Below, one piece after another: positions 5,494-57,465 of a stretch of 64,000 nt of DNA (positions are counted from its first letter, which is position 1; the number at the start of each line of letters is the position of its first letter). Location: the NCBI GenBank assembly GCA_039630415.1, contig JBCNVB010000018.1, positions 96,001 through 160,000 of the forward strand, in the 5' to 3' direction. The position numbers and the translations under genes were made by a program. The notes under the pieces were generated by a model. That model was not told the origin of the DNA. It was given only the letters and a program-made list of their open reading frames with translations, and did no database searches. The DNA comes from a bacterium (GTDB lineage Bacteria; DRYD01).

Positions 5494-5520
5494 ATTCAAC
5501 ATTGTACAAAAAAAATCCCT
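5494..5520 (-). promoter_or_regulatory. Candidate promoter for apt (AAAGG-N18-TTGAAT)
   Basis: Matches the recurring AGG...TWGAAT motif; spacer is 18 nt, or 17 from the end of AGGG. Confidence 0.5.
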
Positions 5521-5539
5521 TTAGTTAGTTTGCATAGGG

Positions 5540-5564
5540 AGGATAAGGTTTTTAGTTGTAGAAT
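5540..5564 (+). promoter_or_regulatory. Candidate promoter for tRNA-Ile2/upp (AGG-N16-TAGAAT)
   Basis: GGAGGATAA at the -35 position and TAGAAT ending 12 nt before the tRNA. Confidence 0.65.
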
Positions 5565-5576
5565 AGTAAGTAGTAG

Positions 5577-5648
5577 GGGCCCCTAGCTCAACGGCAGAGC
5601 ATGCGGCTCATAACCGCAGGGTTCTAGGTTCGAATCCTGGGGGGCCCA
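5577..5648 (+). tRNA. tRNA-Ile2 (anticodon CAT, lysidine type); elongator Met less likely
   Basis: Cloverleaf with GGGCCCC/GGGGCCC acceptor, TGCGG-CTCATAA-CCGCA and TTCGAAT T loop. Paired 1-72 and no GGG/CCC stem exclude fMet; C4-G69 and C5-G68 fit Ile2. Followed by CCT, so the terminal A is not encoded. Confidence 0.9.
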
Positions 5649-5657
5649 CCTCACAAA

Positions 5658-6314
5658 GTGATAATACCTATAAACCATCCCATAGCACAAATAAAACTCT
5701 CCATCCTAAGAGATAAAAACACAAATCCAGACCTATTTAGAAAATCACTAGAAGAATTATCTTACATATTCGTATTCTATTGCTTTGAAAAAGCAGAATT
5801 AGAAACATTAACTATTCAAACCCCCTTAGACGAAACCATAGGTTTTAAACTCAAAGAAAAATACATTATAATACCTATCCTACGAGCAGGACTAGGACTC
5901 CTACCCGCATTCACAAAACTTATACCAGATATTATTGTCGGAATAATAGGATTATCCAGAGATGAAAATACATTAGAACCTACACAATACTACACAAATC
6001 TACCATCCAACCTATCTGACTTCGTTGCGATAATTTTAGAACCCATGATAGCAACAGGAGGAAGCATAAGAAAAGCAATAGAAATACTCATACAAAGAAA
6101 AGCACAAAAAATTAAAGTCTGCTCCATAATCGCATATGAAAAATCTATAATAGAACTGAATGAAAAATTTCCTTTTGTAGAATTTTTCGTTCTTTCAATT
6201 GATAAATCTCTGAACTCACGAGGATATATAGTTCCTGGTCTGGGAGATGCCGGAGATAGAACTTTCGGCACACTCATAAACTCACAAGTATATATAAAAG
6301 GTAATCAATATTAA
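5658..6314 (+). CDS. upp: Uracil phosphoribosyltransferase
   Basis: HP...LRD, PILRAG, RDENTL, PMIATGGS and YIVPGLGDAGDRTFGT motifs. Confidence 0.97.
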   Translation: MIIPINHPIAQIKLSILRDKNTNPDLFRKSLEELSYIFVFYCFEKAELETLTIQTPLDETIGFKLKEKYIIIPILRAGLGLLPAFTKLIPDIIVGIIGLSRDENTLEPTQYYTNLPSNLSDFVAIILEPMIATGGSIRKAIEILIQRKAQKIKVCSIIAYEKSIIELNEKFPFVEFFVLSIDKSLNSRGYIVPGLGDAGDRTFGTLINSQVYIKGNQY

Positions 6315-6982
6315 GGACCAATTCTTGTAACAGACAGATTATCTAAAAAGTCCCTTATCTTATTTATTAACTCTTCCCTATCACTTCGATTATCTCTATA
6401 AAATTTTTCATCAGTTTCAACAATCATTATAGGGATATTTAGGTTAAACTTGTTGTGGCAAAGGAATTCATCATAGTATTTATTTAAGCCTCTTATATAA
6501 TCAATGCTAATACCATCACGCTGTAATTCTATTTCTCTCGATCTTTGAAGTATTCTTTGATAAAGAGTTTCAGGTTTAGCTCTCAAGTATAGAATAAAGG
6601 TAGGCTTTTTTAATAATTTTTCAGTTAGAAAATCAAACCACTTAGTATAACTTCTCCACTCCCTATCATTCATATAACCATGTTCATATAAATACCTAGC
6701 AAAGACATACCTATCTGAATAAACAGACCTTTCTAAAAGTAGATTTTCAGTCGTGTTACTCTGCGCTTCCATATGTCTTATAGCTCTTATAGTGAAAAAT
6801 TCCCACTGAGTAGAGTAAGCCCATCTTTTTTTATCTTGATAAAACAAATCCAGAAAATTATTTTCATACCAAGGTTCATCAACAGGTAAAAAACCCAATT
6901 CCTGAGAAATAATGTTTAAAACCGTAGTTTTGTAAGCCCCTATGTTTCCATCAACTACTGCAAACACTCTACATCCCCCCAT
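6311..6982 (-). CDS. Deoxynucleoside kinase (dCK/dGK/dAK family)
   Basis: DGNIGAYKTT P-loop, ERSVYSDRYVF and RILQRSRE lid. Confidence 0.9.
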   Translation of the reverse strand: MGGCRVFAVVDGNIGAYKTTVLNIISQELGFLPVDEPWYENNFLDLFYQDKKRWAYSTQWEFFTIRAIRHMEAQSNTTENLLLERSVYSDRYVFARYLYEHGYMNDREWRSYTKWFDFLTEKLLKKPTFILYLRAKPETLYQRILQRSREIELQRDGISIDYIRGLNKYYDEFLCHNKFNLNIPIMIVETDEKFYRDNRSDREELINKIRDFLDNLSVTRIGP

Positions 6983-6999
6983 CTTCTACCACTTCCTTT

Positions 7000-8733
7000 T
7001 TATACAAATATAGCTCCAAACAAACCCAATACAAAACTAATAATATACAGAATAAATATTGCAGCTAACCAAATAAACCTGAAGTAAGATCTGTATGTTT
7101 TACCTTCCTTGGTTTTAATTTCAATAACTTCTATATAAGGGAAAAGAGATCTTCTATAGTAGCCTTTTATTGTAGCTTCTTGCCCTATTAATCCCTTGGT
7201 TATAAAAAATCCGTACATTAAATCACCAAAAGATATACCTGTTTTATAGTCTACATATATAAATCCGGTATTGTCCCTAAGTAATACGTCCTCAGAAAGA
7301 ATAAATCCTGCTTGTTCCCTACCAATTATCTGTCCTTCTATGATTGATGGAATTGATCTTACAATTGAAACTTTAGTTTTACAAAGAAGATCAAAGATAT
7401 TATATTCTTTAAATTTACCTGAGTAGGTAAAAATCCACTTTAAAAGGCTACCTGTAGCAGCACCAGCAAGTATAAAAGCAAAGAACACAGAAGGCTTAAG
7501 CATGATCAAACAAGGACTACTTATCAAAGCCCCTACCAAAGAACCTATTATTGGAGCATATTCAAAGAAAAAGTCTATTAAAAATTCATCCCATAGCGAA
7601 CCAGGTAATATATCCACTCCACCTGTATTTTCTATTTGTATTTGTCTTGGAACCTCTATATGGAAAGGAAGCCCCATTTCTGCAGCTATATTAGATAGAC
7701 TTTTTATTCTTTTGGCTATTAAAGGGTGCGTAGATTGTAGTTCAAGAACAGATGCCCAAGGATTGAATAAGTCCCAAGCCATAATTTTGCTAATAGCACT
7801 TGTAGTTTTACTAATTACTTCATCCAAAGTAACTTCTATAGCTGAAACTCCTAGAGTACCAGAATTCAAAGCTGCTATACTTATCCCTCTTGCTTGTTTA
7901 TAATCCATCAAACCTAGCACTTTGAAAGGAGAATTTAATATACTTCTACCACCTTTACTTTTCTCCTGCTCCCTGCTCTCTTTACTCTCAGGATTGAAGT
8001 TCAGTAATCCATAACCTATTTTAATTAAAGCAGTTGCTAATGCATTAGGATTACGTGTTGTATATGCAGAAAACCTATCCGCTCCATACTCCCTCAATCT
8101 TGAAAGATACAAAACCAAATACTCACTTATGATATAGAAGATATATGTGAATATCACAAATAAGATAAGTAATCCCTGATTTCTTCTAGCTTGTGAAAGC
8201 ATATCAGAACTAACAGAGTATATATAGTAAATAATCATAGGTACAATCGTGGCTAAAGTCATAAAAACAAAATCATAGTGAAATATGTGTCCCATTTCAT
8301 GGGCAAAAACAGCCTTTAACTCTTCTTCGTCCATTATCTTAAATAATCCCCTACTAACAATTATTCTTGCATTAGATGGGAAATTACCATATGTGAATGC
8401 TGTAGGAGTATCATCCTCTATTATTCCTATTCTTGGTGGTCTTAAATTGTTTTTAGCATAATAGCTTCTTATAAACTCCCTTACACTATCATAAGGGATT
8501 TCATTTATAGTTACAAAATTACATCTATACAAAAGTCTCAAGACAATATCATATACAAACGGTGAGAGGAAAAAGTGAAAAATTATTATTACAAGAGTAA
8601 TTAACACCGAAATTCCTATAGAAAAAACACCAAATAAACCATACAGCCCTGAAATCAACACAAAAACAGTAATAAGAATGAATATCATGAAATACATGCT
8701 AAATAGTATACCTGCTGACAGAACAATAAACAT
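7000..8733 (-). CDS. HtpX/M48 membrane zinc protease with a long C-terminal membrane extension
   Basis: PTAFTYG, HEMGH, SRLREYGAD and STHP...RI motifs. Confidence 0.88.
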   Translation of the reverse strand: MFIVLSAGILFSMYFMIFILITVFVLISGLYGLFGVFSIGISVLITLVIIIFHFFLSPFVYDIVLRLLYRCNFVTINEIPYDSVREFIRSYYAKNNLRPPRIGIIEDDTPTAFTYGNFPSNARIIVSRGLFKIMDEEELKAVFAHEMGHIFHYDFVFMTLATIVPMIIYYIYSVSSDMLSQARRNQGLLILFVIFTYIFYIISEYLVLYLSRLREYGADRFSAYTTRNPNALATALIKIGYGLLNFNPESKESREQEKSKGGRSILNSPFKVLGLMDYKQARGISIAALNSGTLGVSAIEVTLDEVISKTTSAISKIMAWDLFNPWASVLELQSTHPLIAKRIKSLSNIAAEMGLPFHIEVPRQIQIENTGGVDILPGSLWDEFLIDFFFEYAPIIGSLVGALISSPCLIMLKPSVFFAFILAGAATGSLLKWIFTYSGKFKEYNIFDLLCKTKVSIVRSIPSIIEGQIIGREQAGFILSEDVLLRDNTGFIYVDYKTGISFGDLMYGFFITKGLIGQEATIKGYYRRSLFPYIEVIEIKTKEGKTYRSYFRFIWLAAIFILYIISFVLGLFGAIFV

Positions 8734-8736
8734 GAT

Positions 8737-10056
8737 TTACTTACCCCCCACTACACAGTATATTGTATTCGTTTTTATGGGTTGTTCTGAAAAAATAAGT
8801 GCCTTTTGTGTTATCTCAAGAGCTTTTTCTAGAGATTTACTATCTTTTGCATAAAGCTTCATTATAGTTTGTCCTTCATTAACATACTGTCCAGCTTCCA
8901 CATTTAGTATAATACCAGCATTATTATCTACTTTATCTTCTATCGTTTTCCTGCTTAATCCCAACTCCCCAGATGCTAGTCCAAGTAAGTAAGTATCAAA
9001 ATGTACAAATCCATTCGAAGGAGATTTATATTCATACTCTATTTTGGGTCCAAAATAGGAGTAAGGATCATCTATTATATTTGCTTGACCACCTTGATTT
9101 TGGATAATTTGCCTAAATTTTTCTATAGCTTCACCCGTATTTATTAGTTTTTCTACCAACTGGTATACTTCCTCTTTAACTTTTTCGGAATATTCTATAT
9201 TATTTGCTAAACAGTGAATAAGGGATATTACAGAAAAACATACCTCTTTTAATCGAGAATACTTATTATAGTTACCTTTAAGAAAGTCTATGGAGGATAT
9301 TATTTCAAGATAGTTGCCAATATGATTATTTAGTGGCTGATTCATATCAGTTATAATAGCTGCACATTTTTTACCAAACTTTTGTGCTATGGATATCATA
9401 GCGTTTGATAATTCAAGTGCTTGTTGATAATCTCTCATAAAAGCTCCATTTCCTACTTTTACATCAAGTATTATTACGTCTGCATTAGCGGCTATTTTTT
9501 TACTCATTATACTTGAGGCTATTAGAGGTATACTGTCTACATTCGCTGTTACATCCCTTAGAGCGTATATTTTTTTGTCCGCTGGCGCTAAATTCAAAGG
9601 TTGACTTATAAATCCACCTACACTTTTTAAACTCTCCATCATATGATCCAACGTCAAGCCGGTTCTTAAATTAGGTATTGATTCCATTTTATCAATGGTC
9701 CCACCAGTATGTCCCAGTGATCTACCAGAAAGTTTAGGAACTTTATATCCTAAACAACAAAGTAAAGGCACCACAATAATGCTAACACTATCCCCTACCC
9801 CACCAGTAGAATGTTTGTCTACTTTTATACCCTGAATATCCTTGTAATCTACCACTACTCCCGTATCAATCATTGCTTTTGTAAAAGCGAATATCTCCTC
9901 TTCATTCATACCATGAATAACTGTACTGGTTAAAAAAGCAGACATTTGGTAATCAGGAATATTACCATAATAATACCCCTTGACAATAAAATCTATCTCT
10001 TGATAACTTAAATTTAGACCTAATCTTTTTCTTCTCAATATATCGTAGATATTCAT
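8737..10056 (-). CDS. pdp: Pyrimidine-nucleoside (thymidine) phosphorylase
   Basis: DKHSTGGVGD, SGRSLGHTGGTIDK, LRDVT and SSIMSKKIA motifs. Start set at ATG 10056, which overlaps the PBP stop as ATGA. Confidence 0.95.
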   Translation of the reverse strand: MNIYDILRRKRLGLNLSYQEIDFIVKGYYYGNIPDYQMSAFLTSTVIHGMNEEEIFAFTKAMIDTGVVVDYKDIQGIKVDKHSTGGVGDSVSIIVVPLLCCLGYKVPKLSGRSLGHTGGTIDKMESIPNLRTGLTLDHMMESLKSVGGFISQPLNLAPADKKIYALRDVTANVDSIPLIASSIMSKKIAANADVIILDVKVGNGAFMRDYQQALELSNAMISIAQKFGKKCAAIITDMNQPLNNHIGNYLEIISSIDFLKGNYNKYSRLKEVCFSVISLIHCLANNIEYSEKVKEEVYQLVEKLINTGEAIEKFRQIIQNQGGQANIIDDPYSYFGPKIEYEYKSPSNGFVHFDTYLLGLASGELGLSRKTIEDKVDNNAGIILNVEAGQYVNEGQTIMKLYAKDSKSLEKALEITQKALIFSEQPIKTNTIYCVVGGK

Positions 10057-12104
10057 TCTGTTGTATTTTCCCAAGGGAAAGTATTGTGATCTACAGTAGT
10101 AGTAGTTTGCGCTTGTTGTTGCGTATTATTATTTCTTGTAACTTCAGTTTGGTAATTTTGGTTATTTTCGTTTTGATTAGTTGTTGTTTGTTGAATCTTA
10201 TTATTTTCTATTGACTTGGTTTCCTGTTGAGCAGATTGTTGATCTATTTTTACAAAACTAGGTTTTGATTTTTGGGGTTTATAGTATTTGTAGCAAGCCA
10301 GGATAGATTTTCTCCATATTTCCACTGGCAAGGTAGCCCCATAGACATTATACAGTGGGCTATAATCATCATTTCCTACCCATACCACGCAGGTAAAATC
10401 ATCGGTAAATCCTGAATACCAAGCATCCCTATGATCACTAGTAGTACCAGTTTTACCGTAACAGTTTATGCCTTCTATTCTAGCGTTGTAACCAGTTCCT
10501 CTGTCTACCACTGCTTTCATAAGATCTCTCATATCCTTTGCTACCTGATATGGTAGTACTCTTTCGTATTTTTCTTTATGATAAAACATTATTCCTCCAT
10601 ATCTGTCCTCCACTTTGTAAACAAACTGTGGCTGTATAATATATCCATAGTTTGCTATTACACTTGTCAAAGTAGCTACTTCTAGGACTGACAATACAGA
10701 AGATCCCAAAGCAGTGGACAAATATGGTTCTAGATTAGATTTTACCCCCATTTTTTTAGCTGTTTCTATCACTTTATCTATCCCTATTTGACTTGATAAA
10801 TATACAGCGATAGTATTTCTAGAAAAAGCGAAAGAATCTATTAAGCTCATTCTACCCCAATATTTACCATCCCAATTAACCGGCGAATAAGAGCTAGTAC
10901 CACTTCCATAGGTATACAATCTATCATAAACTACTGTGTTAGGGGAAAAACCATTTTCAAGAGCAGCTGTATAGACAACTATTTTAAATACTGACCCTGG
11001 TTGCCTATAAGCTTGATAAGCCCTGTTAAACTGATCAGAGATTCTATATTCGTATCCTCCAACTAAAGCAAGTACTCTTCCAGTGTAATTTTCTATAACT
11101 ACTACAGCAGCCTGATTTACATTATTAGCTTTCCTATTTTTATCTATTTCTTCCTTAACAATCTTTTGGATATCTTGTTGGATTCTTGTGTCCAAATTTA
11201 GATAAATTCTTAGCCCCATGGTTTTTAAATACTCATTATCAACATCAGTAATTTTCTTGAAATTTTGTACCACATAGTTGACATAATATGGATATAACAC
11301 ATTATTTTGATCAAGTGTTTCTCTTTTTAGCCTTATTGGATACTCTACATATTTTTTGTATTCTAAAGGTGATATGTATTTAAGTTCAAGAAGCCTTCTT
11401 AGCACGTATAATTGCCTTTTACGAGCCATCTTGTAGTTTATGTAAGGCGAGTAAACAGAAGGAGCTGGTAGAAGACCAATTATCATTGCCGCTTCAGGTA
11501 TGTTTAGTTGGGACACAGATTTGGCAAAATATACTCTTGATGCTGCCTCTATTCCATAAGCTCCTTCCCCAAAGTATACTAGATTCAAATACATTTCCAT
11601 TATTTCCTGCTTGGAAAAACTTTTTTCTAATTCAACAGCTAGAACAGCTTCCCTTATTTTTCTTCTAATACTAAGCTCAGGACTTAGGAAAAGTATTCTA
11701 GCTAACTGCTGGGTTATAGTACTTCCTCCTTGGGTAACTTGCTTATTCAATGCTATGTCTATGATACTCCTCACTACAGCTATAAAATCCACCCCTCTAT
11801 GTATATAAAATCTTTCATCCTCAGAAGCTATAAGGCATATTTTTACTGAATTTGGTATACTAGATATTGGAACCCAATATCTATTTTCAACGTATAATTT
11901 AGCTACTTTTTGACCATCTAGAGAAAAAAACTCACTTGATTGAACCGGTATTTTTTTCCTTATCTGTTTAACATCAACTACATCCTTTTGGGCTTCCTTT
12001 ATTAATCCCAATACAAAGTAAGTTACAAAGAAAACACATACAATAATCAAAAAGGCTATTACCTTGAATATTCCTACTATCAAACTAATGATTTTTCTTA
12101 GCAT
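10053..12104 (-). CDS. Class A penicillin-binding protein (PBP1A family)
   Basis: Transglycosylase motifs EDERFY.H.G, GGSTITQQL and RKIRE; transpeptidase motifs SVFK, SRN and KTGT; Q/T/N-rich tail. Confidence 0.95.
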   Translation of the reverse strand: MLRKIISLIVGIFKVIAFLIIVCVFFVTYFVLGLIKEAQKDVVDVKQIRKKIPVQSSEFFSLDGQKVAKLYVENRYWVPISSIPNSVKICLIASEDERFYIHRGVDFIAVVRSIIDIALNKQVTQGGSTITQQLARILFLSPELSIRRKIREAVLAVELEKSFSKQEIMEMYLNLVYFGEGAYGIEAASRVYFAKSVSQLNIPEAAMIIGLLPAPSVYSPYINYKMARKRQLYVLRRLLELKYISPLEYKKYVEYPIRLKRETLDQNNVLYPYYVNYVVQNFKKITDVDNEYLKTMGLRIYLNLDTRIQQDIQKIVKEEIDKNRKANNVNQAAVVVIENYTGRVLALVGGYEYRISDQFNRAYQAYRQPGSVFKIVVYTAALENGFSPNTVVYDRLYTYGSGTSSYSPVNWDGKYWGRMSLIDSFAFSRNTIAVYLSSQIGIDKVIETAKKMGVKSNLEPYLSTALGSSVLSVLEVATLTSVIANYGYIIQPQFVYKVEDRYGGIMFYHKEKYERVLPYQVAKDMRDLMKAVVDRGTGYNARIEGINCYGKTGTTSDHRDAWYSGFTDDFTCVVWVGNDDYSPLYNVYGATLPVEIWRKSILACYKYYKPQKSKPSFVKIDQQSAQQETKSIENNKIQQTTTNQNENNQNYQTEVTRNNNTQQQAQTTTTVDHNTFPWENTTE

Positions 12105-12477
12105 AAGAAATGAATACAGGTATAAGCTTTTCGAAATTTTTTCTACAATATTTCTTTGCTAATCTGATATATACATGAACTAGCACTTTTTCGGGTATTT
12201 GAGAAGCTTTTATTTCACAGTATAGTAGTAAAAGCAATGCTCTTTCCATATAATTCATAACAAAATAATCTGATCTGTATATAATTTCCCATACCCCCTG
12301 GTTATATTTATGGTAGTTTTCAATCAAATTACCTAGTACTTGTCTAAAGTAAGTAGAAAGGTATAAAGGAAGAAAAAACTTTTGGTAGTATAGAAACTGA
12401 AGGACCGTTCCTAGAGCAATTTCTCGTTGGTATTTTTGAGAATATTTCTGATTATCTTTTGATAGTTGGCTCGACAT
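12085..12477 (-). CDS. nusB: Divergent transcription antitermination factor NusB
   Basis: REIAL..., ERALL.L...EI...IP.KV......LAKKY pattern and typical size. Confidence 0.6.
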   Translation of the reverse strand: MSSQLSKDNQKYSQKYQREIALGTVLQFLYYQKFFLPLYLSTYFRQVLGNLIENYHKYNQGVWEIIYRSDYFVMNYMERALLLLLYCEIKASQIPEKVLVHVYIRLAKKYCRKNFEKLIPVFISYAKKNH

Positions 12478-19011: not shown

Positions 19012-19392
19012 TTATACTCTTCTTCTTGAAGGAGGTCTACATCCATTGTGTGGTATTGGAGTAGCATCTTTTATATCACTGATTTCAAGTCCTGCAGCTC
19101 TAAGTGCTCTTATAGCTGATTCTCTTCCCATACCAGGTCCCTTAACAATTACTTTAACCTCTCTTAAACCTTGTTGTATAGCTTTCTCTGCAGCCTGCTT
19201 TGCAGCTAATTGAGCTGCAAATGGAGTGCTTTTCTTAGTACCTTTATATCCTACTGTTCCTCCAGATGCCCAACTTATCGTATTACCATTCTCGTCCGTT
19301 ATTGTTATTATTGTATTGTTAAATGTAGAGTGTATATGAGCTATTCCTGTACTGCTAACTCTTTTTTGTTTTTTCTTCTTTTTATAAGCCAT
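19012..19392 (-). CDS. rpsK: 30S ribosomal protein S11
   Basis: [22 protein letters not shown] and [20 protein letters not shown]. Confidence 0.98.
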
Positions 19393-19438: not shown

Positions 19439-19463
19439 ATTCTACCAAAAATAGATATTACCT
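19439..19463 (-). promoter_or_regulatory. Candidate promoter for the rpsK operon (CAGG-N16-TAGAAT, TGn-extended)
   Basis: Minus strand reads AACAGG TAATATCTATTTTTGG TAGAAT. Confidence 0.65.
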
Positions 19464-19919
19464 GTTTTTTATTATTATCCTACAGCCAGGATAATACTTC
19501 CCATCTTCAGAAACTATACATCCCGTCGAAGGAACACCATCATCCAAAAAAGAGTCAACATCAACTATAGTTTTAAGAGGTACAAATGAATTTTCTGAAC
19601 AGGTATTAACCTTACTATAAACTACTTCATCAACATATATAACTATCTGCGTATTATAGGCTGAAAGGAGTTTTATACTCTTTCGATTATCATGCCGCTC
19701 AATTGATACTACCTTGAAAATTATGGATAGATCTCTTAACGTATTTTCTATTTGCAATAAAGAATCTTGATAAACTAAATTCCTTATAAATCTTATCTGA
19801 TTAATAAAATCCAAATACATTTTATCGCTTGAATAAGGTGAATAGAGAGAGAAAACCTTTACTATTAATACCATGGAAACTAATATAATAACACTTCTAG
19901 ATATAAAAATATCCCACAT
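19458..19919 (-). CDS. Hypothetical protein with an N-terminal membrane anchor
   Basis: 153-aa ORF filling the dxs-rpsK gap, with a hydrophobic N-terminus. Confidence 0.65.
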   Translation of the reverse strand: MWDIFISRSVIILVSMVLIVKVFSLYSPYSSDKMYLDFINQIRFIRNLVYQDSLLQIENTLRDLSIIFKVVSIERHDNRKSIKLLSAYNTQIVIYVDEVVYSKVNTCSENSFVPLKTIVDVDSFLDDGVPSTGCIVSEDGKYYPGCRIIIKNR

Positions 19920-21983: not shown

Positions 21984-22009
21984 ATTTTACATTTATAAAT
22001 TTATTTCCT
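21984..22009 (-). promoter_or_regulatory. Candidate promoter for dxs (AAGG-N17-TAAAAT)
   Basis: Minus strand reads GGAAGG AAATAAATTTATAAATG TAAAAT. Confidence 0.6.
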
Positions 22010-22019
22010 TCCTTTATGT

Positions 22020-23545: not shown

Positions 23546-24814
23546 TTATCTGATAATTTTGGAAGGCAAAATAAATACCGGTAAGTAGAGTGCTAATAAG
23601 ATAAAGAATACAAATCCTCCTACAATCACTATAAGAGTAGGTTCAATCAATCTCATTGCTCTTTCTATTGTTACTTCCATTTGGGTCGAGTAGTACCTAT
23701 CTGCTTCACTTAGCATTTTGTATATAGTTCCACTTCTTTCACCTGTTATTAGCATCTGTTCAACGATAGGTTCAAAAAATTTTGTATTAATTAAACTATC
23801 ACTAAGCTTTTTACCTTGTTCAATGCTAGATATTACTTCTTTTATTTTCTGACTAAAAAGCGAACTAGTAGTTGCTGCAGAAGACATCTCTAAAGAAGAT
23901 ATTATTGATATACCATTAGTTAAAGTTGTATGTAATGCTTTGAAAAAAATAGAACAGTAATAATACTTGATAATATTCGAAATCACAGGAATTTTAAGTA
24001 GAATATACTCGAGATTTTTTCTCAAATCTACGTTTTTCCACATGTAAAACAAAATACCAAAAATACTAAATTTCAACATATACAACATAAAACCCATATT
24101 GATAGTAAAACCTAAAATTTTGAGATTGGAAGTATATAAGTCTGATGCTTTTATTACCATAACTGTAATAAGGGGTAAATCTTTGTAAATTTTTTCAAGA
24201 CCTATCATTTGTACAAAAATTTGTTTAAATTTGGGTACAACAAAGAACATAGCAAGTGCCCAAACTAACAAAACAGCGAATATCACAAACAGAGGATAAA
24301 TCATAACGTTAATTAATCTATTCTTAATATTGATAAAGTAATTGTAATAATCTGCCAAACTTTGGAAAATTTTATCCAAATTACCAGAAACTTCACCAAC
24401 TTTAATCATATTAATAAAAAAACTACCAAAATAGCTTTCATACTTTGAAAAAGCTCTATAAAAACTAACACCACTCTGAATATCTAATGATATATTTTCA
24501 AATATTTTTCTCAAATATGGATTCTTTATTGTTCTTATAAATATGTTCAACATTGAATTGACAGGTAATCCTGCGTGAAACATTTGACTGAATTGAGTTG
24601 ATATAAATGCTAAACTAGATAAATCAGCTTTCTTATATTTGGCTAAAGATATTTCCTTAATGAAAAGCTCTCTATTTATAGAAACCAAAGCCTGAACATC
24701 TGGATTAGCTATAACTTTCTGCATAGCTTCTTCTGCATCCTTTGCCTCTACTACTACATGCCTGATTTGATTCAAACTATCCAAGTACTCAACCTTATAT
24801 TTCACCCTACTCAT
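23546..24814 (-). CDS. pilC: Type II secretion F / type IV pilus platform protein PilC
   Basis: Two T2SSF repeats (GEVSGNL...YP and GERSG...EP). Start probably ATG 24814. Confidence 0.9.
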   Translation of the reverse strand: MSRVKYKVEYLDSLNQIRHVVVEAKDAEEAMQKVIANPDVQALVSINRELFIKEISLAKYKKADLSSLAFISTQFSQMFHAGLPVNSMLNIFIRTIKNPYLRKIFENISLDIQSGVSFYRAFSKYESYFGSFFINMIKVGEVSGNLDKIFQSLADYYNYFINIKNRLINVMIYPLFVIFAVLLVWALAMFFVVPKFKQIFVQMIGLEKIYKDLPLITVMVIKASDLYTSNLKILGFTINMGFMLYMLKFSIFGILFYMWKNVDLRKNLEYILLKIPVISNIIKYYYCSIFFKALHTTLTNGISIISSLEMSSAATTSSLFSQKIKEVISSIEQGKKLSDSLINTKFFEPIVEQMLITGERSGTIYKMLSEADRYYSTQMEVTIERAMRLIEPTLIVIVGGFVFFILLALYLPVFILPSKIIR

Positions 24815-24824
24815 CAAATATCCA

Positions 24825-24850
24825 TTTATATACACCGAAACTAAAATCCT
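24825..24850 (-). promoter_or_regulatory. Candidate promoter for pilC (AAGG-N17-TATAAA)
   Basis: Minus strand reads TGAAGG ATTTTAGTTTCGGTGTA TATAAA. Confidence 0.5.
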
Positions 24851-24880
24851 TCAAACAAAGCCACCAAAAATAAAAAATAA

Positions 24881-24906
24881 AGGGAATAATAAACTCTAGC
24901 TTGAAT
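24881..24906 (+). promoter_or_regulatory. Candidate promoter for the mtaB operon (AAGG-N17-TTGAAT)
   Basis: AAAGG GAATAATAAACTCTAGC TTGAAT, ending 9 nt before GTG 24916. Confidence 0.55.
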
Positions 24907-24915
24907 AGTAATTAT

Positions 24916-35805: not shown

Positions 35806-35845
35806 ATTTATATTTTTTGATATAGCTTTAGATGATTCCTTTAGG

Positions 35846-35870
35846 AGGAGTATTGGGTAAAAAGTAGAAA
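35846..35870 (+). promoter_or_regulatory. Candidate promoter (GAGG-N16-TAGAAA) ending 8 nt before ATG 35879
   Basis: AGGAGG AGTATTGGGTAAAAAG TAGAAA. Confidence 0.55.
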
Positions 35871-35878
35871 AATAAGGT

Positions 35879-46500: not shown

Positions 46501-47129
46501 ACGACTATCTCTTAATCCTATTTGTAACCATTTTATCTTATCTGTTAGGTAGTATCCCAACAGGATATATTATAGGTAAACTTAAAGGAATAGACATAAC
46601 AAAACAAGGTAGTGGAAACATAGGAATGGCAAACGTTTTTAGAACATTAGGACCAATTTATGGTATTACAGTGCTGCTTCTTGACGCATCAAAAGGGTTT
46701 ATACCAACTTTTATAGCTATAGAGCTTAATTTCCCTTTACTCGTTATACTTTTAGTAGGGATATTCTCTATTTTGGGACATATTTTTTCTATCTTTTTAG
46801 GGTTTAAAGGTGGTAAAGGTGTAGCCACAGCGGCTGGTATGTTTTTAGCCATAAGTCCTATTCTTACTTTATCTTCTTTCTTGGTATGGTTAACAACCGT
46901 TCTTTTAACAAGATACTCCTCTTTGGGGTCAATACTTGCTTGTTTATGGGCTTGTTTTCTTGTACTACTATATCAATTCGAGCTTATTAAAATCAGCCTT
47001 CTTACATTCTATACAGCACAAAAAGCATATTTCTGTGTTTTTGTTATCCTAATCTCAATCTTCATCATTTTCAAACATAGGGACAACATTGTCAGAATAA
47101 TAAAAAATCAGGAAAAAAAGCTATTCTAG
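46497..47129 (+). CDS. plsY: Glycerol-3-phosphate acyltransferase
   Basis: YLLGSIP, GSGNIG..N..R, GH.FS...F.GGKGVA and H..NI.R motifs. Confidence 0.95.
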
Positions 47130-49349
47130 TTTGTTGTATACAGGAACAATATTTGTCAAATTAAAAAATAACAAACTAAAATCGCTCATAACCATAATAA
47201 TTGCAGCCAATATAGGGTTAACAGTTATACCAAAACCTACTAACATTCCCATTGCTAAAGGAACAAAAAATGAATTGTAGCCAAAAACCCAAAATATATT
47301 GAATCTAAGTTTTTTAAACACTTCATCTGAAATTTTAATTAATTCCTTCAACTGAGAAATCTCTTTGAGAATTACCTTTGCAGAATTTTGAGTTATATCA
47401 CTACCATACTCAAATGATATTCCAACATCAGCAACTGTCATAGCCAAACTATCATTTATTCCATCCCCAATGAATACAACATATTCATTACTTTTGGAGT
47501 TTTGTTTATTTTTAAGATTCTCTATAATTCTAACCTTACTAACTGAGTCAACCGAGCATATTACTTTATCTGATTCAATACTCAATTGTTTGGTTATTTC
47601 AAATGTTGATTCTTTTGAGGAACCTGTCAAGATATAAATCTCTTTGTTTGATTTTTGAATGGTTTTTAAAGCTTCCATTACACCCTGATTTATCTCTTCT
47701 CGATAGCTGAAAATGCAAGTATTTATCGGATCATTATCTTTTAGAAGTATAGCGTACGTACTTGAGCTTATTGTTTGATACTCTTTTTGGTTTTGGAGAT
47801 TCTTTTTGATAAACATTGGATTACCAAGTAATAGAGTGTAAAATTGTTTATTTTCTTTGTGTTTTGCCTTTAAGATAATCCCTTCAGAAGATACTTCTTT
47901 GAACTCGTGGATATGATAGTTAGTTAGTAGCCTATCTAAGTCGAGATTATACATAGAAAGGATATAGTTTTTTATTCCAACAGAGATTGGATGATTTGAT
48001 TTTGAAACTCCTATCATTAAAAGTTCTAAAAAAGTATTTGTTTCCGATTGATTTACAAACTCAAGGCTATTTATTTTCAAGTTTTTGTTAGTAATAGTTC
48101 CCGTTTTGTCGAAGACAAACTTTTGAGCTTTGGATATTTTTTCAAATACGTAAGGATCTTTAATTATAATATGCTTTTTTGATGTTTCTAACATTCCCTT
48201 ATTTATAGCCAAAGGAGAAGCAAGACCAATAGCACAAGGACAAGCTATTATTAACGTAGATATAAGCGAATTCAACGCCATTTGATAATTACCACTAATA
48301 TACCAGTAAACAAAACTACCTAAAGCAAGGAAAACAATGACAATAACAAAATTACCCGATAGTTTATCAATAAATCTTTGGTAATTTGAAGCTTTTGAGG
48401 TTAGATTATATAGTGTTATCTCCATTCCTTTCCAGAAACTTTTGTTATAATCCACTAGGGATTTTATTTTTATTGTTCCGTCTATGAGGAATGATCCGGC
48501 GGGAACAATTTCACCTTTCTCTACCACTTTGGGTTGATTTTCTCCAAAAATTAAACTCAGATCGACTAAACCTTCACCTTCAACAACTTGCCCATCTACA
48601 GGTATACTTTGTCCCTTTACGATCTCCAATATATCACCTTCTTTTATTTGATCAACATCCATACTTGTCCAGTGATTATCAACCAATCCATTAACCTTCA
48701 CAGGTCTATAAGTTAGTAAATTCAGTACAGAATACATACCCTGCTTCTTATATCTATTTTCAATATATCTACCTATCAAAAGAACACTTATTATAATACA
48801 AGAAGTTTCAAAATAAAGTTTGTGTATGTTATTGAAATAAGCATATAAGCTATAAAAATAGGCAGTAGTAGTAGAGATAACTATTAAAAGATCCATGTTT
48901 AACGTCATATTTTTTAGCGAGTAAAAAACACTTCTATAGAATCTATATCCATTAACAAACTGTACAAAACTAGTTGCAAAAATGACTGTATATGCTATTA
49001 GTTTACTAGAATAGATCGAACTATGAAAAAACATACAGGTAATAAAAACAAAAATCGAGAGTACTATAGAAGATATAAGGTTTAAAATTTCCCAGTGATT
49101 ATGTTTTTCACTGGATACGAATTCAGTTTGAATCTCAGCTTGATAGCCAAGCTTTTTGATTTCCCTTATAATGTTTGAAATATCAAAACCTGGATTTACT
49201 ATGACAAACATTTTTTGGGTAGCAAAATCTATGTCGATAAAATTTATATTTTTACCTACTTTGCTTTGTAGTGAATGTTTCAGATTTTTCGCACAACTAA
49301 TACAATCCAACCCTTTGATTTTTATAACGAATTCTCTTGAATCACTCAT
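47121..49349 (-). CDS. P1B-type heavy-metal ATPase (CopA/CcoI-like)
   Basis: CISC metal-binding domain, YFE, CPC, DKTGT, HP, GDGIND and YN motifs. Confidence 0.88.
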   Translation of the reverse strand: MSDSREFVIKIKGLDCISCAKNLKHSLQSKVGKNINFIDIDFATQKMFVIVNPGFDISNIIREIKKLGYQAEIQTEFVSSEKHNHWEILNLISSIVLSIFVFITCMFFHSSIYSSKLIAYTVIFATSFVQFVNGYRFYRSVFYSLKNMTLNMDLLIVISTTTAYFYSLYAYFNNIHKLYFETSCIIISVLLIGRYIENRYKKQGMYSVLNLLTYRPVKVNGLVDNHWTSMDVDQIKEGDILEIVKGQSIPVDGQVVEGEGLVDLSLIFGENQPKVVEKGEIVPAGSFLIDGTIKIKSLVDYNKSFWKGMEITLYNLTSKASNYQRFIDKLSGNFVIVIVFLALGSFVYWYISGNYQMALNSLISTLIIACPCAIGLASPLAINKGMLETSKKHIIIKDPYVFEKISKAQKFVFDKTGTITNKNLKINSLEFVNQSETNTFLELLMIGVSKSNHPISVGIKNYILSMYNLDLDRLLTNYHIHEFKEVSSEGIILKAKHKENKQFYTLLLGNPMFIKKNLQNQKEYQTISSSTYAILLKDNDPINTCIFSYREEINQGVMEALKTIQKSNKEIYILTGSSKESTFEITKQLSIESDKVICSVDSVSKVRIIENLKNKQNSKSNEYVVFIGDGINDSLAMTVADVGISFEYGSDITQNSAKVILKEISQLKELIKISDEVFKKLRFNIFWVFGYNSFFVPLAMGMLVGFGITVNPILAAIIMVMSDFSLLFFNLTNIVPVYNKLE

Positions 49350-49367
49350 TGAGATCTCTACTTATAA

Positions 49368-49392
49368 TTTATAGCATATTAAATCTAATCCT
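49368..49392 (-). promoter_or_regulatory. Candidate promoter for the P1B ATPase (AAGG-N16-TATAAA, TGn-extended)
   Basis: Minus strand reads GCAAGG ATTAGATTTAATATGC TATAAA. Confidence 0.55.
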
Positions 49393-49441
49393 TGCTAGAT
49401 TCTAACAGGATAATCAAAGACATATAGATAGCCAAAGGCAG

Positions 49442-50149: not shown

Positions 50150-50823
50150 TAATAACAATTGATGGTCCATCAGGAACAGGAAAAACTACTATAGGTATAA
50201 AACTAACCATAAAACTAAATAAAACTACAAAGTATAGTTTCTATTTCATTGATACTGGCTTGGTATACAGAATGTATACTTTTAAAACTATCAGTAGCCT
50301 AAATCATAGTTCAATAAATCCAAACAAAGTAGTTATAATAGATAAGCTATACAAAAATCCAAACTACGAAAAAAAGTATAGTTATCTGTATACTGAGGAA
50401 ATAGCTTTAAAAACATCAGAATTATCTAAAGTCAAAGAAAACAGACAGTTTATAACAAATCAGATAAGGGAAAAAGTAAAACAGATAAGAGAAAAACAGA
50501 AAAATAGTGGTTTTGTTGTAGTAGGTAGAGACTGTGGAACAGTTATTTTCCCACAAGCAGACTTTAAATTCTATTTGTACACTAACCCCCATATAAGAGC
50601 AAAAAGAAGAATAAAGCAATATGAAAAGCTAGGAATTAAAACAGAATATAGACAAATACTTCAACAGATAATCAGAAGAGACCTTGAAGACTCTCTAAGA
50701 GAAGAATCCCCTCTACCACCCATACAAAATTTACCCCCAGATTTCATTCCCATCATATCAGATAACCTAACAATTACTCAAACAGTAAACGAAATATTAA
50801 AAAAAATAAAAGGAATAGGGTAA
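50146..50823 (+). CDS. cmk: Cytidylate kinase
   Basis: ITIDGPSGTGKTT, DTG..YR, GRD.GTVIFP.A and RD..D..R..SPL motifs. Confidence 0.93.
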   Translation: MIITIDGPSGTGKTTIGIKLTIKLNKTTKYSFYFIDTGLVYRMYTFKTISSLNHSSINPNKVVIIDKLYKNPNYEKKYSYLYTEEIALKTSELSKVKENRQFITNQIREKVKQIREKQKNSGFVVVGRDCGTVIFPQADFKFYLYTNPHIRAKRRIKQYEKLGIKTEYRQILQQIIRRDLEDSLREESPLPPIQNLPPDFIPIISDNLTITQTVNEILKKIKGIG

Positions 50824-50835
50824 ATCAAATTGAAT
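50811..50835 (+). promoter_or_regulatory. Candidate promoter for the EamA gene (AAGG-N16-TTGAAT)
   Basis: AAAAGG AATAGGGTAAATCAAA TTGAAT, ending 9 nt before GTG 50845. Confidence 0.55.
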
Positions 50836-50844
50836 TAGTACCAT

Positions 50845-51270
50845 GTGAAGATAGAAGCGTGGTTCTTGTTTTCCATAGCTAGCTTAGTTTTGTGGGGTAT
50901 ATCAGGCTTCCTAATGAAACTGGCAACCTTTAAACTAGACCCTAAAATAGCTTTTATATTTCAATCAATTGGATTAATTGTAGTAACTTGTGTAGTTTAT
51001 TTTACAATAGTAAATATTGGGAGCAATTTTAAAAATGATGTATTGTTCATAATTTTTTCTGTTTTCGCTGGTGTAACAGGTGGTTTGGGTACATTTTTTT
51101 TACTTAAGGCCTACGAAAAGGGTAATTTAGCAACAGTAACAGTTTTAACAGCACTATACCCAGTTATTGCAGTAGCTCTGGGTATACTAATCCTAAAGGA
51201 AAAATTAACAATAACACAGATATTTGCAATCATACTTTCCTTAGTAGCGATAGTGCTTTTTTCGTTGTAA
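50845..51270 (+). CDS. EamA/DMT family small transporter
   Basis: About 5 TM helices; WG...F..K and G..A.V...ALYP..LKE motifs. Confidence 0.88.
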   Translation: MKIEAWFLFSIASLVLWGISGFLMKLATFKLDPKIAFIFQSIGLIVVTCVVYFTIVNIGSNFKNDVLFIIFSVFAGVTGGLGTFFLLKAYEKGNLATVTVLTALYPVIAVALGILILKEKLTITQIFAIILSLVAIVLFSL

Positions 51271-51286
51271 TACTGTAAACAAAAAG

Positions 51287-51311
51287 AGGATGTTTATTTG
51301 AGAAATAGAAT
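51287..51311 (+). promoter_or_regulatory. Candidate promoter for tRNA-Glu (GAGG-N16-TAGAAT)
   Basis: AAGAGG ATGTTTATTTGAGAAA TAGAAT, ending 15 nt before the tRNA. Confidence 0.65.
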
Positions 51312-51326
51312 AATATAACTGAAGAA

Positions 51327-51402
51327 GGCCCTGTCGTCTAGTGGACTAGGACACCGGCCCTTCAAGCCGGAGACACGGGTTCGAATCCCGTCAGGGTCAC
51401 CA
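51327..51402 (+). tRNA. tRNA-Glu (TTC) with C33
   Basis: GGCCCTG/CAGGGTC acceptor, CCGGC-CCTTCAA-GCCGG anticodon arm, short variable loop, TTCGAAT and encoded CCA. Confidence 0.94.
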
Positions 51403-52243: not shown

Positions 52244-52251
52244 TGTAAAAG

Positions 52252-53688: not shown

Positions 53689-53695
53689 TTAACAC

Positions 53696-55648: not shown

Positions 55649-55663
55649 TAAATTTAGATTCTG

Positions 55664-56458
55664 CTAGATTCTTAGAATTTGATTAAGAGCAGTTTTTATA
55701 TCGGTTGATTTTTTTCTTTTTCCGATAATAAGAGCGGCTGATATACCGTATTGCCTATCATCAACCTGTTTGAGATAATTACCTGGTATAACGATAGAGT
55801 TTTCGGGTATTTCAGATTGGTAGATTTGTCCAGTGTTTATATCTATAATTTTGGTTCCAGAGGTGATAGATACATTTGCTGCTAGTACAGCTCCCCTTCT
55901 TATTATTGTTCCTTCCACAATAACACACCTTGACCCTATGAAGCAGTCATCTTCAATTATAACTGGCATAGCAGAAGGTGGTTCTAGAACTCCACCTATA
56001 CCAACCCCACCAGCCAAGTGTACATTTCTACCTATTTGAGCACAAGATCCCACAGTAACCCATGTATCTACCATCGTTCCACTACCTATGTATGCACCAA
56101 TATTTATAAAAGAAGGCATTATAACACATCCTTCTTCAATAAAACTACCATACCTTATAATAGCACCAGGAACAACTCTATATTTATAATTCAACTTCTT
56201 GAGCCTTATTTTATCAAAATACTCAAACTTACCAGACTTGATTTTCTTTGAATCAGAAATAACAAAATATAGCAATATGGCTTTTTTAACATATTCATTT
56301 ACTATCCATTCATCGTCTTTTTTTTGTGCAACTCTTATCTTACCTTCGTCAAGAAGTTTTATAGCTTTTTGTATATGTTTCTTGAATTTATGCTTTATTT
56401 CCAAAGGATCTTTGTTTTTAGAAAAAATTTCCCAAGCTAATTCTATTGAATCTTGCAT
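55664..56458 (-). CDS. dapD: Tetrahydrodipicolinate N-succinyltransferase
   Basis: KKAILLYF, RVVP, MVDTW.TVGSCAQIG and GGVLEP motifs. Confidence 0.95.
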   Translation of the reverse strand: MQDSIELAWEIFSKNKDPLEIKHKFKKHIQKAIKLLDEGKIRVAQKKDDEWIVNEYVKKAILLYFVISDSKKIKSGKFEYFDKIRLKKLNYKYRVVPGAIIRYGSFIEEGCVIMPSFINIGAYIGSGTMVDTWVTVGSCAQIGRNVHLAGGVGIGGVLEPPSAMPVIIEDDCFIGSRCVIVEGTIIRRGAVLAANVSITSGTKIIDINTGQIYQSEIPENSIVIPGNYLKQVDDRQYGISAALIIGKRKKSTDIKTALNQILRI

Positions 56459-56471
56459 AACTATCCCCCAA

Positions 56472-56939
56472 TTAGATTTCTTTAGTTTTTTTCATTAGCA
56501 AAGCATCTACTTTACCATAATAATTTTTTCTTTTTCCTATAACACTAAATCCAAATTTTTTATAAAGATTTATAGCTACAATATTCATTTCTGAAACTTC
56601 GAGATATATTTCTCTTACTCCTTTGAAAAAGAGAACTCCCAGATTAAATGATAATATTTTTTTTCCAATTCCTTTGAATCTGTAGTCTTTATCCACTATT
56701 ATTTTGAGAATATCAGCATGATCATAACTTATGGAAGATAGACAAAATGCTATGATTCTGAAAGTTTTAGCAAGAGTTAATACAACATTAGGTCTACAAA
56801 TGAGAGCTATATAATCTTCTCTACTCCAGCAAAAATACAATTCGTTATATCCTTCTTGAGTGAATTGACTATCTATGTAAAGTATGTCTTCGATATCTTG
56901 TGAACAAATGGTATACGAGTTGGCATTGTATACAAACAT
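56472..56939 (-). CDS. rimI: GNAT acetyltransferase, RimI-like
   Basis: R.KGIG, LEVSE.N..AI.LY.KFGF..IG.RKNYY...DA..M pattern. Confidence 0.85.
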   Translation of the reverse strand: MFVYNANSYTICSQDIEDILYIDSQFTQEGYNELYFCWSREDYIALICRPNVVLTLAKTFRIIAFCLSSISYDHADILKIIVDKDYRFKGIGKKILSFNLGVLFFKGVREIYLEVSEMNIVAINLYKKFGFSVIGKRKNYYGKVDALLMKKTKEI

Positions 56940-56946
56940 GTTGACA

Positions 56947-57387
56947 TCAAAGTATGTATTTAAGTGCCTTGGATAGTAATTCTTTTTCTTCTGGGTAAGA
57001 CAACATGTTATATGCTTCTTCGACAGTAACCCATTTCATTTCTTGAATTTCCTGATTTGGTATAAACTTCTCATTTTTGGAGATTTTTAGAAGATAAAAA
57101 TGTACTTCTTTATCATAAAAAACCTTTTCGTGGGAAGAGTAGTATGAATAATTGACAACACCGATTTTTCTTATGACTTTAGAAATTATACCTGTTTCTT
57201 CCCTAACTTCTCTGATAACTGCGTGTTCCATCGATTCATTTTGCTCAATTCTACCTCTAGGAAATATCCAAATATCTCTACCTTTACGCTTAACAATACA
57301 TACCATTGTTTGGTTTCCGTTTTTCCAAAAAATAATTCCCCCTGCTGAGATAATTTTTTTAGATTTTCTATTTTTGTCAGAATCCAT
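56947..57387 (-). CDS. NUDIX hydrolase (Ap4A hydrolase-like)
   Basis: SAGG and the Nudix box GRIEQNESMEHAVIREVREETG. Confidence 0.92.
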   Translation of the reverse strand: MDSDKNRKSKKIISAGGIIFWKNGNQTMVCIVKRKGRDIWIFPRGRIEQNESMEHAVIREVREETGIISKVIRKIGVVNYSYYSSHEKVFYDKEVHFYLLKISKNEKFIPNQEIQEMKWVTVEEAYNMLSYPEEKELLSKALKYIL

Positions 57388-57402
57388 CCTTAATATATTA
57401 GT

Positions 57403-57426
57403 TTTCTATCAAGGGCTAAAAAACCT
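57403..57426 (-). promoter_or_regulatory. Candidate promoter for the NUDIX-rimI-dapD-asnB unit (AAGG-N15-TAGAAA)
   Basis: Minus strand reads TAAAGG TTTTTTAGCCCTTGA TAGAAA. Confidence 0.5.
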
Positions 57427-57439
57427 TTAATATCTATGG

Positions 57440-57465
57440 AGGTTTGGTTATTGTTTTTGTATAAT
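57440..57465 (+). promoter_or_regulatory. Candidate promoter for tmRNA (GAGG-N17-TATAAT)
   Basis: TGGAGG TTTGGTTATTGTTTTTG TATAAT, ending 13 nt before ssrA. Confidence 0.65.

Follow-up and report, generated by a model that had tools for sequence, protein, structure and literature searches.

Twelve sites scattered over a window of bacterial DNA (the whole stretch that was analysed, 64,000 nucleotides (nt) long, G000:C10:96001-160000) carry an AGG box placed at a near-fixed distance upstream of a TAGAAT-like hexamer. Read as sequence motifs, these sites are probably the standard promoters of the organism and of its whole phylum, and the code that they follow is the one of Bacillus sigma-H, with the same geometry. 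A sigma factor of the SigH family is probably the principal sigma of the lineage. An earlier note, made from the letters of the window, had listed the twelve sites, had pointed out that none has TTGACA and that their geometry is that of the Bacillus subtilis sigma-H consensus, and had proposed a lineage-wide alternative housekeeping promoter system whose reader would be a sigma-H-like factor or a primary sigma with a rewired region 4.2. All twelve sites are present at the coordinates and with the spacings that it gave. A position weight matrix (PWM) trained genome-wide gives eleven of them 12 bits or more.

The genome of the window (G000) is a 1.40-Mb assembly of 31 contigs, with a G+C content (GC) of ~0.32 and a completeness of 89%. 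Its phylum comprises 11 species genomes from three genera: the family of the window holds genera of seven and three genomes, and a second family is represented by G010. The nearest genomes beyond this 11-genome phylum are related at domain level only. Database proteins that are 90% identical to the SigH of a relative carry the label Candidatus Calescibacterium sp., and the organism of the window belongs to a deep-branching thermophilic phylum of hot springs. Promoters were compared with those of G008 (second genus), of G010 (GC 0.44) and of an unrelated control genome, G030, which has a GC of 0.35 and a canonical RpoD. Upstream sequences of 80–100 nt were collected for all 42 transfer RNA (tRNA) genes and for the transfer-messenger RNA (tmRNA) gene of G000. 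The intergenic gaps of the genome were sorted by orientation; sense upstream gaps (n = 579) were analysed against three controls, namely the antisense strand of tandem gaps, convergent gaps and coding DNA.

TAGAAT is the hexamer that occurs most often in the 45 nt immediately preceding tRNA and tmRNA genes, being found in 13 of the 43 regions and, when one mismatch is allowed, in 26. An AGG lies exactly 16–17 nt before the hexamer in 19 of these 26 regions, whereas the other spacers predict ~2.3 (binomial P = 2.6e-15). The key column is a G in 22 of the 26 and a purine stands right before the hexamer in 24. The end of the hexamer is separated by 10–17 nt from the mature 5′ end of the tRNA or tmRNA in 14 of them. 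C is almost absent from these promoter regions, being missing in most aligned columns of the 26.

The same spacing emerges from the intergenic gaps. On the sense strand of the 579 upstream gaps an AGG is found at spacers 16 and 17 before 55 and 46 per 1000 TA.AAT hexamers, against 2–28 per 1000 at the remaining spacers between 8 and 30. Convergent gaps have no AGG at either of these spacers (0 and 0), the antisense strand of tandem gaps has 0 and 4 per 1000, and coding DNA has 10 and 10 when read in sense and 6 and 9 in antisense. When all 3- and 4-mers were scanned at spacers 5–35, AGG, AAGG and AGGT at 16–17 ranked top before TAGAA. hexamers: AGG occupies spacers 16 and 17 before 30 and 36 of the 384 hexamers (~6.4 expected; z 9–12). 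The scan yielded no comparable signal before TATAAT and no TTG peak before TA...T hexamers. The peak is still seen in 613 protein-gene upstream regions trimmed by their last 12 nt (19 and 18 occurrences of AGG before TAGAA. versus a mean of 3.7 at other spacers), and the motif also precedes tRNA and tmRNA genes; the earlier note had stated that the AGG is not a Shine-Dalgarno sequence.

Scoring of held-out sequences, one half of the regions, led to the same picture. At a threshold of 12 bits these regions have 1.16–1.20 hits per kb versus 0.19–0.24 in dinucleotide shuffles, 0.31–0.37 in coding sense and 0.11–0.14 in antisense DNA; at 14 bits they have 0.55–0.69 versus 0.04–0.07 per kb in the shuffles. 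The level of 12 bits is reached by 21% of the held-out regions as compared to 4% of the shuffles. A crude count of mismatches to AAGGAA/TAGAAT separates poorly (0.78 per kb upstream versus 0.50 in purine-rich coding sense DNA); the meaningful tests are the spacing-based ones.

The shape of the motif was derived by a two-block expectation-maximisation (EM) search on 515 upstream regions. It reads R-R/A-A-G-G-(A/T)-W-W, a spacer, and t-R-T-A-G-A-A-t-W. The AGG is separated from the hexamer by 16 nt (0.52) or 17 nt (0.41) and lies 18–19 nt before GAA. In the −35 block a purine (A.46, G.39) is followed by A or any nucleotide, by A (.88), G (.87) and G (.87), and then by an A/T-rich stretch. In the −10 block a purine (A.47, G.45) precedes by three positions a G (.61), which is followed by A (.91), A (.92), T (.50) and a position that is A or T (.91). 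GAA is the most informative part of this block, above the T, A and T positions (T−12 and T−7 included), which are those of the −10 hexamer read by group-1 sigmas. Starting from an uninformative −35 seed and TATAAT the search recovers aaGG and GGtAGaA unaided; the AGG/TAGAAT seed applied to shuffled or antisense DNA gives flat spacers and degenerate blocks. According to the EM estimate 53% of the 515 regions have a site. Since the upstream set contains intra-operon gaps and gaps due to missed genes, the true share of regions with the motif lies between about one-fifth and one-half.

The consensus of Bacillus sigma-H promoters, as stated in PMC8510167, is RNAGGAWWW at −35 and RNNGAATWW at −10. 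The motif of G000 matches it position by position, including flanks that the earlier note had left unused: the R two positions before AGG, the run of W after it, the R three positions before GAA and the W after the T. In Bacillus the two consensus strings are 11–12 nt apart. The sequence features that define a sigma-H promoter, a −35 box with an AGG(A) core, a GAAT −10 box and a fixed spacing between AGG and GAA, are all found in G000.

No ordinary class of promoters was detected in this genome. EM seeded with TTGACA/TATAAT or with TTG/TANNNT ended in T-runs, with no spacer preference, when run on all 515 regions. The outcome was again T-runs, and no second class, in the 210 of 467 regions that stay below 9 bits for the sigma-H-type motif. 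Even when one mismatch is tolerated in each box, TTGACA-N16-18-TATAAT shows no enrichment, with 0.28 occurrences per kb upstream of genes versus 0.26–0.30 per kb in antisense and coding DNA. The pipeline does detect such a class in 400 kb of the positive control G030: its top signal is TTG at spacer 20 before TA...T (34 versus 13.3), several of its tRNA genes have TTGACA-type boxes, and the AGG seed degenerates there into the ribosome-binding site. Because no second promoter class was found in G000, the RpoD-like protein of this organism (see below) has no motif assigned to it. The earlier view of the window holds for the genome: the AGG is enriched ahead of the −10 box with a peak at 16/17 that the shuffled and convergent-gap controls lack, the spacing, both boxes and the flanks have the sigma-H geometry, and no TTGACA class is detectable.

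The code is shared by relatives of G000. G008 has the same AGG peak at 16/17. A TAGAAT-like hexamer is present in 19 of the 27 usable tRNA upstream regions of G010, and an AGG precedes it at N16/17 in 16 of these 19; the tRNA promoters of this genome read AGGAGG-N16-TAGAAT, their −35 box being usually the full AGGAGG. Because the box has the sequence of the ribosome-binding core, promoters and Shine-Dalgarno sequences look alike in this phylum and motif finders confuse them. The EM search on its protein genes (42 regions) was confounded by Shine-Dalgarno strings and the tRNA loci were used instead. The promoter of the tmRNA gene, with an RGG box 16–17 nt before a TAnAAT-like hexamer, is kept in all nine genomes that have a full tmRNA match; the hexamer ends 13–19 nt before the tmRNA in these genomes and the sequence of the spacer varies. 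A site of this type that scores 17.3 bits (positions 9169-9197 of G004:C3:60001-80000) precedes by 131 nt the sigH gene of the relative G004, which starts at 9328. The motif is dominant in G000 and common to three genera that span the 11-genome phylum, so that the alternative housekeeping code may be called lineage-wide, as had been proposed from the window.

Five open reading frames (ORFs) of the sigma-70 family were identified in G000, where neither a match to Pfam region 1.2 (PF00140) nor a sigma-54 was found. P0001 (C5:179929-180996, 355 amino acids) is RpoD/RpoS-like and very diverged, with a best NCBIfam score of 96 bits. It scores 83.7 bits against RpoD_Cterm (TIGR02393), the cut-off of which is 354. 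Its gene comes right after dnaG, where the primary sigma gene is classically located, and an intact ortholog is present in all 11 genomes of the phylum. In all of them the protein is devoid of region 1.1 and carries an insertion of ~35 amino acids in region 3. The orthologs of the window's family have a further insertion of six amino acids just before the recognition helix of region 4.2, which is not found in G010. Their region 2.4 reads FSTYA[AT]YWIYHS versus the canonical TWWIRQ, the G010 version being near-canonical (TWWIKQ). The region 4.2 helix is SKERIRQ in the window's family and SRERVRQIE, which is fully canonical, in G010. The RpoD_Cterm cut-off was passed in 14 of the 31 genomes searched, all of them outside the phylum apart from one contig of G006; that contig aside, the best match in the ten genomes of the family is at most 94 bits, and the one of G010 is 188 bits. 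The contig in question (G006:C47:1-1821, 1.8 kb) codes for the C-terminal part of a canonical RpoD (410 bits, 25% identical to P0001) and is probably a contaminant. Inspection of the sigma inventory and of regions 2.4 and 4.2, which the earlier note had put forward as a check, thus gave a family in which no canonical RpoD was found, the G006 contig aside, and in which SigH-family sigmas are present.

One of these is P0002 (C19:36599-37321, 240 amino acids). Its best families are SigH models, and its scores are below their cut-offs (151.8 versus 208 for NF006148; 147.5 versus 294.8 for TIGR02859), as for a SigH-family paralog rather than SigH itself. The solved structure closest to it is 3mzy, deposited as 'RNA polymerase sigma-H factor'. 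Proteins of the P0002 type occur in all ten genomes of the window's family and were not found in G010. The gene is located within a same-strand run of energy-metabolism genes (C19:33112-40897), an unusual home for a sigma gene: nuoH-, gltD- and nuoI-like genes come before it, and those of isocitrate dehydrogenase, malate dehydrogenase and citrate synthase after it. The remaining three sigmas of G000 are SigB/F/G-like, weakly SigB/F-like and FliA/WhiG-like, respectively.

Bona fide SigH (NF006148) is encoded by all ten other genomes of the phylum, with scores of 298–328 bits versus a cut-off of 208. With TIGR02859 the SigH of G004 is slightly under the cut-off (288.9 versus 294.8). The 20 closest genomes from outside the phylum all stayed below the SigH cut-off, two of them giving weaker matches of 114 and 139 bits, and among 14 named control genomes a SigH match was found only in Bacillus subtilis. 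In G004 the gene belongs to the block hslV-tatD-FAD protein-sigH-rsmG-csx1 (G004:C3:60001-80000, positions 5951-12248), where it shares ~60 nt of its 3′ end with the beginning of rsmG. The order FAD protein-sigH-rsmG is kept in all six other genomes of the genus.

The sigma factors of the phylum change at different rates. SigH, with the G004 protein as query, is 88–91% identical within the genus, 76–81% identical in the second genus and 65% identical in G010. The figures are 67–79% and 46–50% for P0002 (not found in G010), and 61–72%, 45–47% and 32% for the RpoD-like P0001. For comparison, the median identity of G000 proteins to their best hits is 54% in 300 kb of G008 (90th percentile 72%, 95th percentile 81%; 146 pairs) and 37% in G010 (56% and 63%; 38 pairs). 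The comparison of SigH with this proteome scale is approximate because its query comes from G004 and not from G000; on the approximate scale SigH is found in the top 5–10% for conservation and the RpoD ortholog below the median. The direct neighbours of SigH are just 45–58% identical within the genus. SigH is 57–60% identical to metagenome SigH proteins labelled Heliobacteriaceae, Peptococcaceae, Firmicutes, Eremiobacterota and Armatimonadota, relative to which the core of its region 2 and its region 4.2 helix are essentially invariant.

Of the two readers between which the earlier note had left the choice, the evidence favours the sigma-H-like factor and disfavours a primary sigma with a rewired region 4.2, since the recognition helix of the RpoD-like protein is canonical, and fully so in G010, the genome with AGGAGG-type promoters. 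SigH is favoured also because the motif equals the sigma-H consensus in flanks and geometry, because a SigH with Firmicutes-like DNA-binding helices spans the phylum and is extremely conserved, and because the motif is the same in G000, G008 and G010 while the RpoD-like protein retains just 32% identity. The kept boxes of the tmRNA promoter and the site ahead of sigH in G004 are in line with this choice. It is conceivable, and in our opinion unlikely, that the diverged dnaG-linked P0001 is still the principal sigma, rewired to AGG/TAGAAT, and that the SigH proteins are alternative factors that share its code or read a subset of it. P0001 is after all the positional ortholog of the primary sigma and is intact in 11 of 11 genomes, so it does something. 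Its altered region 2.4 and the stretch inserted before the 4.2 helix in the window's family would fit a changed specificity. Moreover, the bases of TATAAT that are read by group-1 sigmas (T, A and T) are preserved in TAGAAT, so that the −10 box taken alone leaves room for the RpoD-like protein. A rewired P0001 has difficulty, however, in accounting for the retention of ERIRQ in its helix and for G010, whose version is canonical and has no insertion, yet whose tRNA promoters are AGGAGG-N16-TAGAAT. The motif, moreover, remained unchanged across the phylum while the protein diverged, and it equals the sigma-H consensus down to the flanking R and W. The AGG is also ~3 nt nearer to the −10 box than the TTG of a sigma-70 promoter, and the information peaks on GAA, not on the flipped A and T positions that matter to group-1 sigmas.

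Besides these properties of P0001, several points weigh against SigH as the principal sigma. Bona fide SigH was not found in the 89% complete assembly of the window's own genome, in which P0002 is the only protein of this type present, and P0002 has a conserved 4.2 helix and a region 2 that is conserved only in part. Its neighbours in the relatives (hslV, tatD, the FAD protein, rsmG and csx1) were not found in G000 either (E 1e-3), and the genes to the left of the block in G004 map to G000 C10:75862-81248. An assembly gap is likelier than a real loss of SigH; there may be a gap near a CRISPR locus, or a true deletion of the sigH block. The 16S rRNA gene was not found in the G000 assembly, so the promoter evidence consists of tRNA, tmRNA and protein genes. 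Genes were called with a crude purpose-made ORF caller (1328 ORFs of at least 80 amino acids, covering 84% of the genome) whose start codons are unreliable, the EM search was a seeded one, and the relatives are kin and hence non-independent samples.

Two other explanations deserve consideration. The RpoD-like sigma could read the −10 box only, and the AGG box could be the target of a separate general activator or a UP-like element at −35. The −10 box does resemble TATAAT, the AGG box is short, and many AT-rich bacteria have weak −35 elements. Such a division of labour between two readers is nevertheless improbable: the sharp 16/17 spacing and the R/W flanks are typical of a −35 element bound by a sigma factor and coincide with the sigma-H consensus, no candidate for the second factor was identified, and a SigH with invariant DNA-binding helices that match those of Firmicutes is present phylum-wide. 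Hardly any credit can be given to the idea that the signal is a by-product of composition, generated by purine-rich leaders, Shine-Dalgarno-like AGGAGG strings and the TAnAAT-like hexamers that abound in AT-rich DNA. Purine-rich coding sense strands do contain many hits of at least 10 bits (1.2 per kb), and AGGAGG, the core of the ribosome-binding site, tops the list of hexamers over-represented ahead of genes. The spacing peak is, however, missing from coding sense DNA, antisense DNA, convergent gaps and dinucleotide shuffles, it persists after trimming of the last 12 nt before the starts, the motif stands at a fixed distance before tRNA and tmRNA genes, which are not translated, and the control genome G030 has no such signal. 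Chance or composition was rejected as it is contradicted by the strand, gap, coding, shuffle and control-genome tests.

Under the preferred explanation, in which SigH is the principal sigma, the housekeeping role would have been taken over by this factor in the lineage. The predicted promoter consists of a −35-type element RRAGG(A/T)WW, a spacer of 16–17 nt between AGG and the hexamer, and a −10-type element R-TAGAAT-W whose GAA is the most constrained part. By homology with the SigH of Firmicutes, the region 4.2 helix KS[VI]DNALQR[IV][KR][RK]K would recognise AGGA and region 2 would recognise GAAT, and transcripts would start ~6–8 nt after the hexamer. The RpoD/SigA ortholog has lost region 1.1, has gained insertions and evolves faster than the median protein, and probably has a minor or specialised role.

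The twelve sites of the window lie upstream of non-coding RNA genes and of protein genes of varied function. The strongest belongs to the tRNA gene at 5577-5650 (site 5537..5565, + strand; AGG 5540-5542, N16, TAGAAT 5559-5564; PWM 19.2), its hexamer ending 12 nt before the mature 5′ end. This tRNA has the anticodon CAT and is called tRNA-Met by ARAGORN; the earlier note had labelled it tRNA-Ile, and it may be one of the lysidine type. The tRNA-Glu gene (51327-51402) has a site at 51284..51311 on the + strand (AGG 51287-51289, N16, TAGAAT 51306-51311; 15 nt to the mature 5′ end; PWM 15.9). The site of the tmRNA gene (57479-57822) is at 57437..57465, also on the + strand (AGG 57440-57442, N17, TATAAT 57460-57465; 13 nt to the mature 5′ end; PWM 16.1). 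It stands back to back with the site of a Nudix hydrolase gene (56947-57387), found on the − strand at 57403..57429 (AGG 57426-57424, N15, TAGAAA 57408-57403; PWM 12.4). Rfam confirms the tmRNA and three tRNAs.

Further sites on the − strand precede apt, rpsK, dxs, a gene of the PilC/GspF family and a gene for a P1B-type ATPase. The one of apt (ORF 4920-5450), at 5494..5522, is readable in two ways, as AGG-N18-TTGAAT or as GGG-N17 (AGG/GGG at ~5521-5517, TTGAAT 5499-5494; 43 nt to the start codon; PWM 13.5). The site of rpsK, coding for S11 (19012-19392), is at 19439..19466 (AGG 19463-19461, N16, TAGAAT 19444-19439; PWM 18.1), 46 nt from the start, and that of dxs (19967-21943) at 21984..22012 (AGG 22009-22007, N17, TAAAAT 21989-21984; PWM 16.0). 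At the PilC/GspF-family gene (23546-24835; site 24825..24853, AGG 24850-24848, N17, TATAAA 24830-24825; PWM 14.5) the TATAAA hexamer overlaps the GTG start listed for the ORF. The site of the P1B-type ATPase gene (47121-49349; site 49368..49395, AGG 49392-49390, N16, TATAAA 49373-49368) is the weakest of the twelve, with a PWM score of 10.4 bits, a level that is common in purine-rich coding DNA.

The + strand sites of protein genes are three. The one of mtaB, divergent from the PilC/GspF-family gene, is at 24878..24906 (AGG 24881-24883, N17, TTGAAT 24901-24906; PWM 12.8); the TTG start listed for this ORF is the −10 hexamer itself, and the next in-frame start is a GTG at 24916. An ORF of 170 amino acids (35879-36391) has its site at 35843..35870 (AGG 35846-35848, N16, TAGAAA 35865-35870; PWM 16.2), only 8 nt from the ATG, and the messenger RNA (mRNA) of this ORF may be leaderless. 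The site of the ORF at 50845-51270 is at 50808..50835 (AGG 50811-50813, N16, TTGAAT 50830-50835; PWM 13.9). Seven of the gene labels given previously (apt, S11, dxs, PilC/GspF family, MtaB, P1B ATPase and Nudix) were confirmed; the 50845 ORF, which had been labelled 'EamA', has no NCBIfam match at E 1e-8, and the 35879 ORF matches no family.

In five cases the likely start codon is found 8–18 nt past the hexamer, namely in the 35879 ORF (35865-35881), the 50845 ORF (50830-50847), mtaB when started from the GTG at 24916 (24901-24918), the P1B ATPase gene (49349-49373) and the Nudix gene (57387-57408). This arrangement suggests that genes of this kind have leaderless or very short-leader mRNAs. 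A further property of the window, seen over its entire length (1-64000), is that GC and AT skews track the orientation of the genes, the transcribed strand being strongly purine-loaded.

Promoters of this type and their sigma family are known from the Firmicutes. Bacillus subtilis sigma-H (Spo0H) promoters have the same two boxes, the same R/W flanks and AGG 18–19 nt from GAA, and the sigma family is the one present in the phylum. The Firmicutes factor is described in PMC3364868 as an alternative sigma that falls between groups 3 and 4 and acts in sporulation, stationary phase or competence. Unlike in the Bacillus sigma-H regulon, 19 of 26 tRNA/tmRNA promoters follow the code here, and so do those of apt, dxs and rpsK and about one-fifth to one-half of upstream regions. 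Stable-RNA genes of Firmicutes are read by SigA, whereas no SigA-type promoter class is detectable here. As in group-1 RpoD/SigA systems, stable-RNA and ribosomal-protein genes have the code in their default promoters, and an RpoD ortholog that keeps ERIRQ is located after dnaG. The ortholog nevertheless differs from group-1 proteins by its score (84 versus 354 bits), by having neither a region 1.2 match nor an N-terminal region, and by its insertions in region 3 and, in the window's family, in region 4.2, and TTGACA/TATAAT is not enriched upstream of genes. A phylum-wide departure from TTGACA/TATAAT for housekeeping genes is also a feature of Bacteroidota, whose code is TTTG at −33 and TAnnTTTG at −7. 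There it is the primary sigma itself that has changed; the code found here, by contrast, coincides with the one of an alternative sigma family that is already known, next to a primary-sigma ortholog that looks decayed. The distinctive property of the lineage would then be the role of a familiar promoter type as phylum-wide default, accompanied by the apparent decay of the primary-sigma ortholog.

The use of a group-1 sigma on TTGACA/TATAAT-like promoters is regarded as a near-universal and essential feature of bacteria. Searches by lineage names and for SigH as a primary or housekeeping sigma retrieved no report of such a sigma-H housekeeping code. The main texts of two papers on the lineage (PMC4791363, PMC11696919) contain neither 'sigma' nor 'promoter'. 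We advance, with some hesitation, the possibility that this is the first known case of bacteria whose essential housekeeping genes (tRNA, tmRNA, ribosomal proteins, central metabolism) are transcribed with a SigH-family sigma of groups 3/4, the group-1 sigma being a fast-evolving relic with a minor role. If this is true, the primary sigma can be replaced in evolution, the principal sigma of a bacterium being swappable, and a whole promoter set can be converted to the code of an alternative sigma. The phylum would offer a natural system for the co-evolution of thousands of promoters and a sigma factor, and the prediction of promoters and operons in these uncultured organisms would change. It would also raise the question of the role that SigH played in the common ancestor of the phylum and the Firmicutes.

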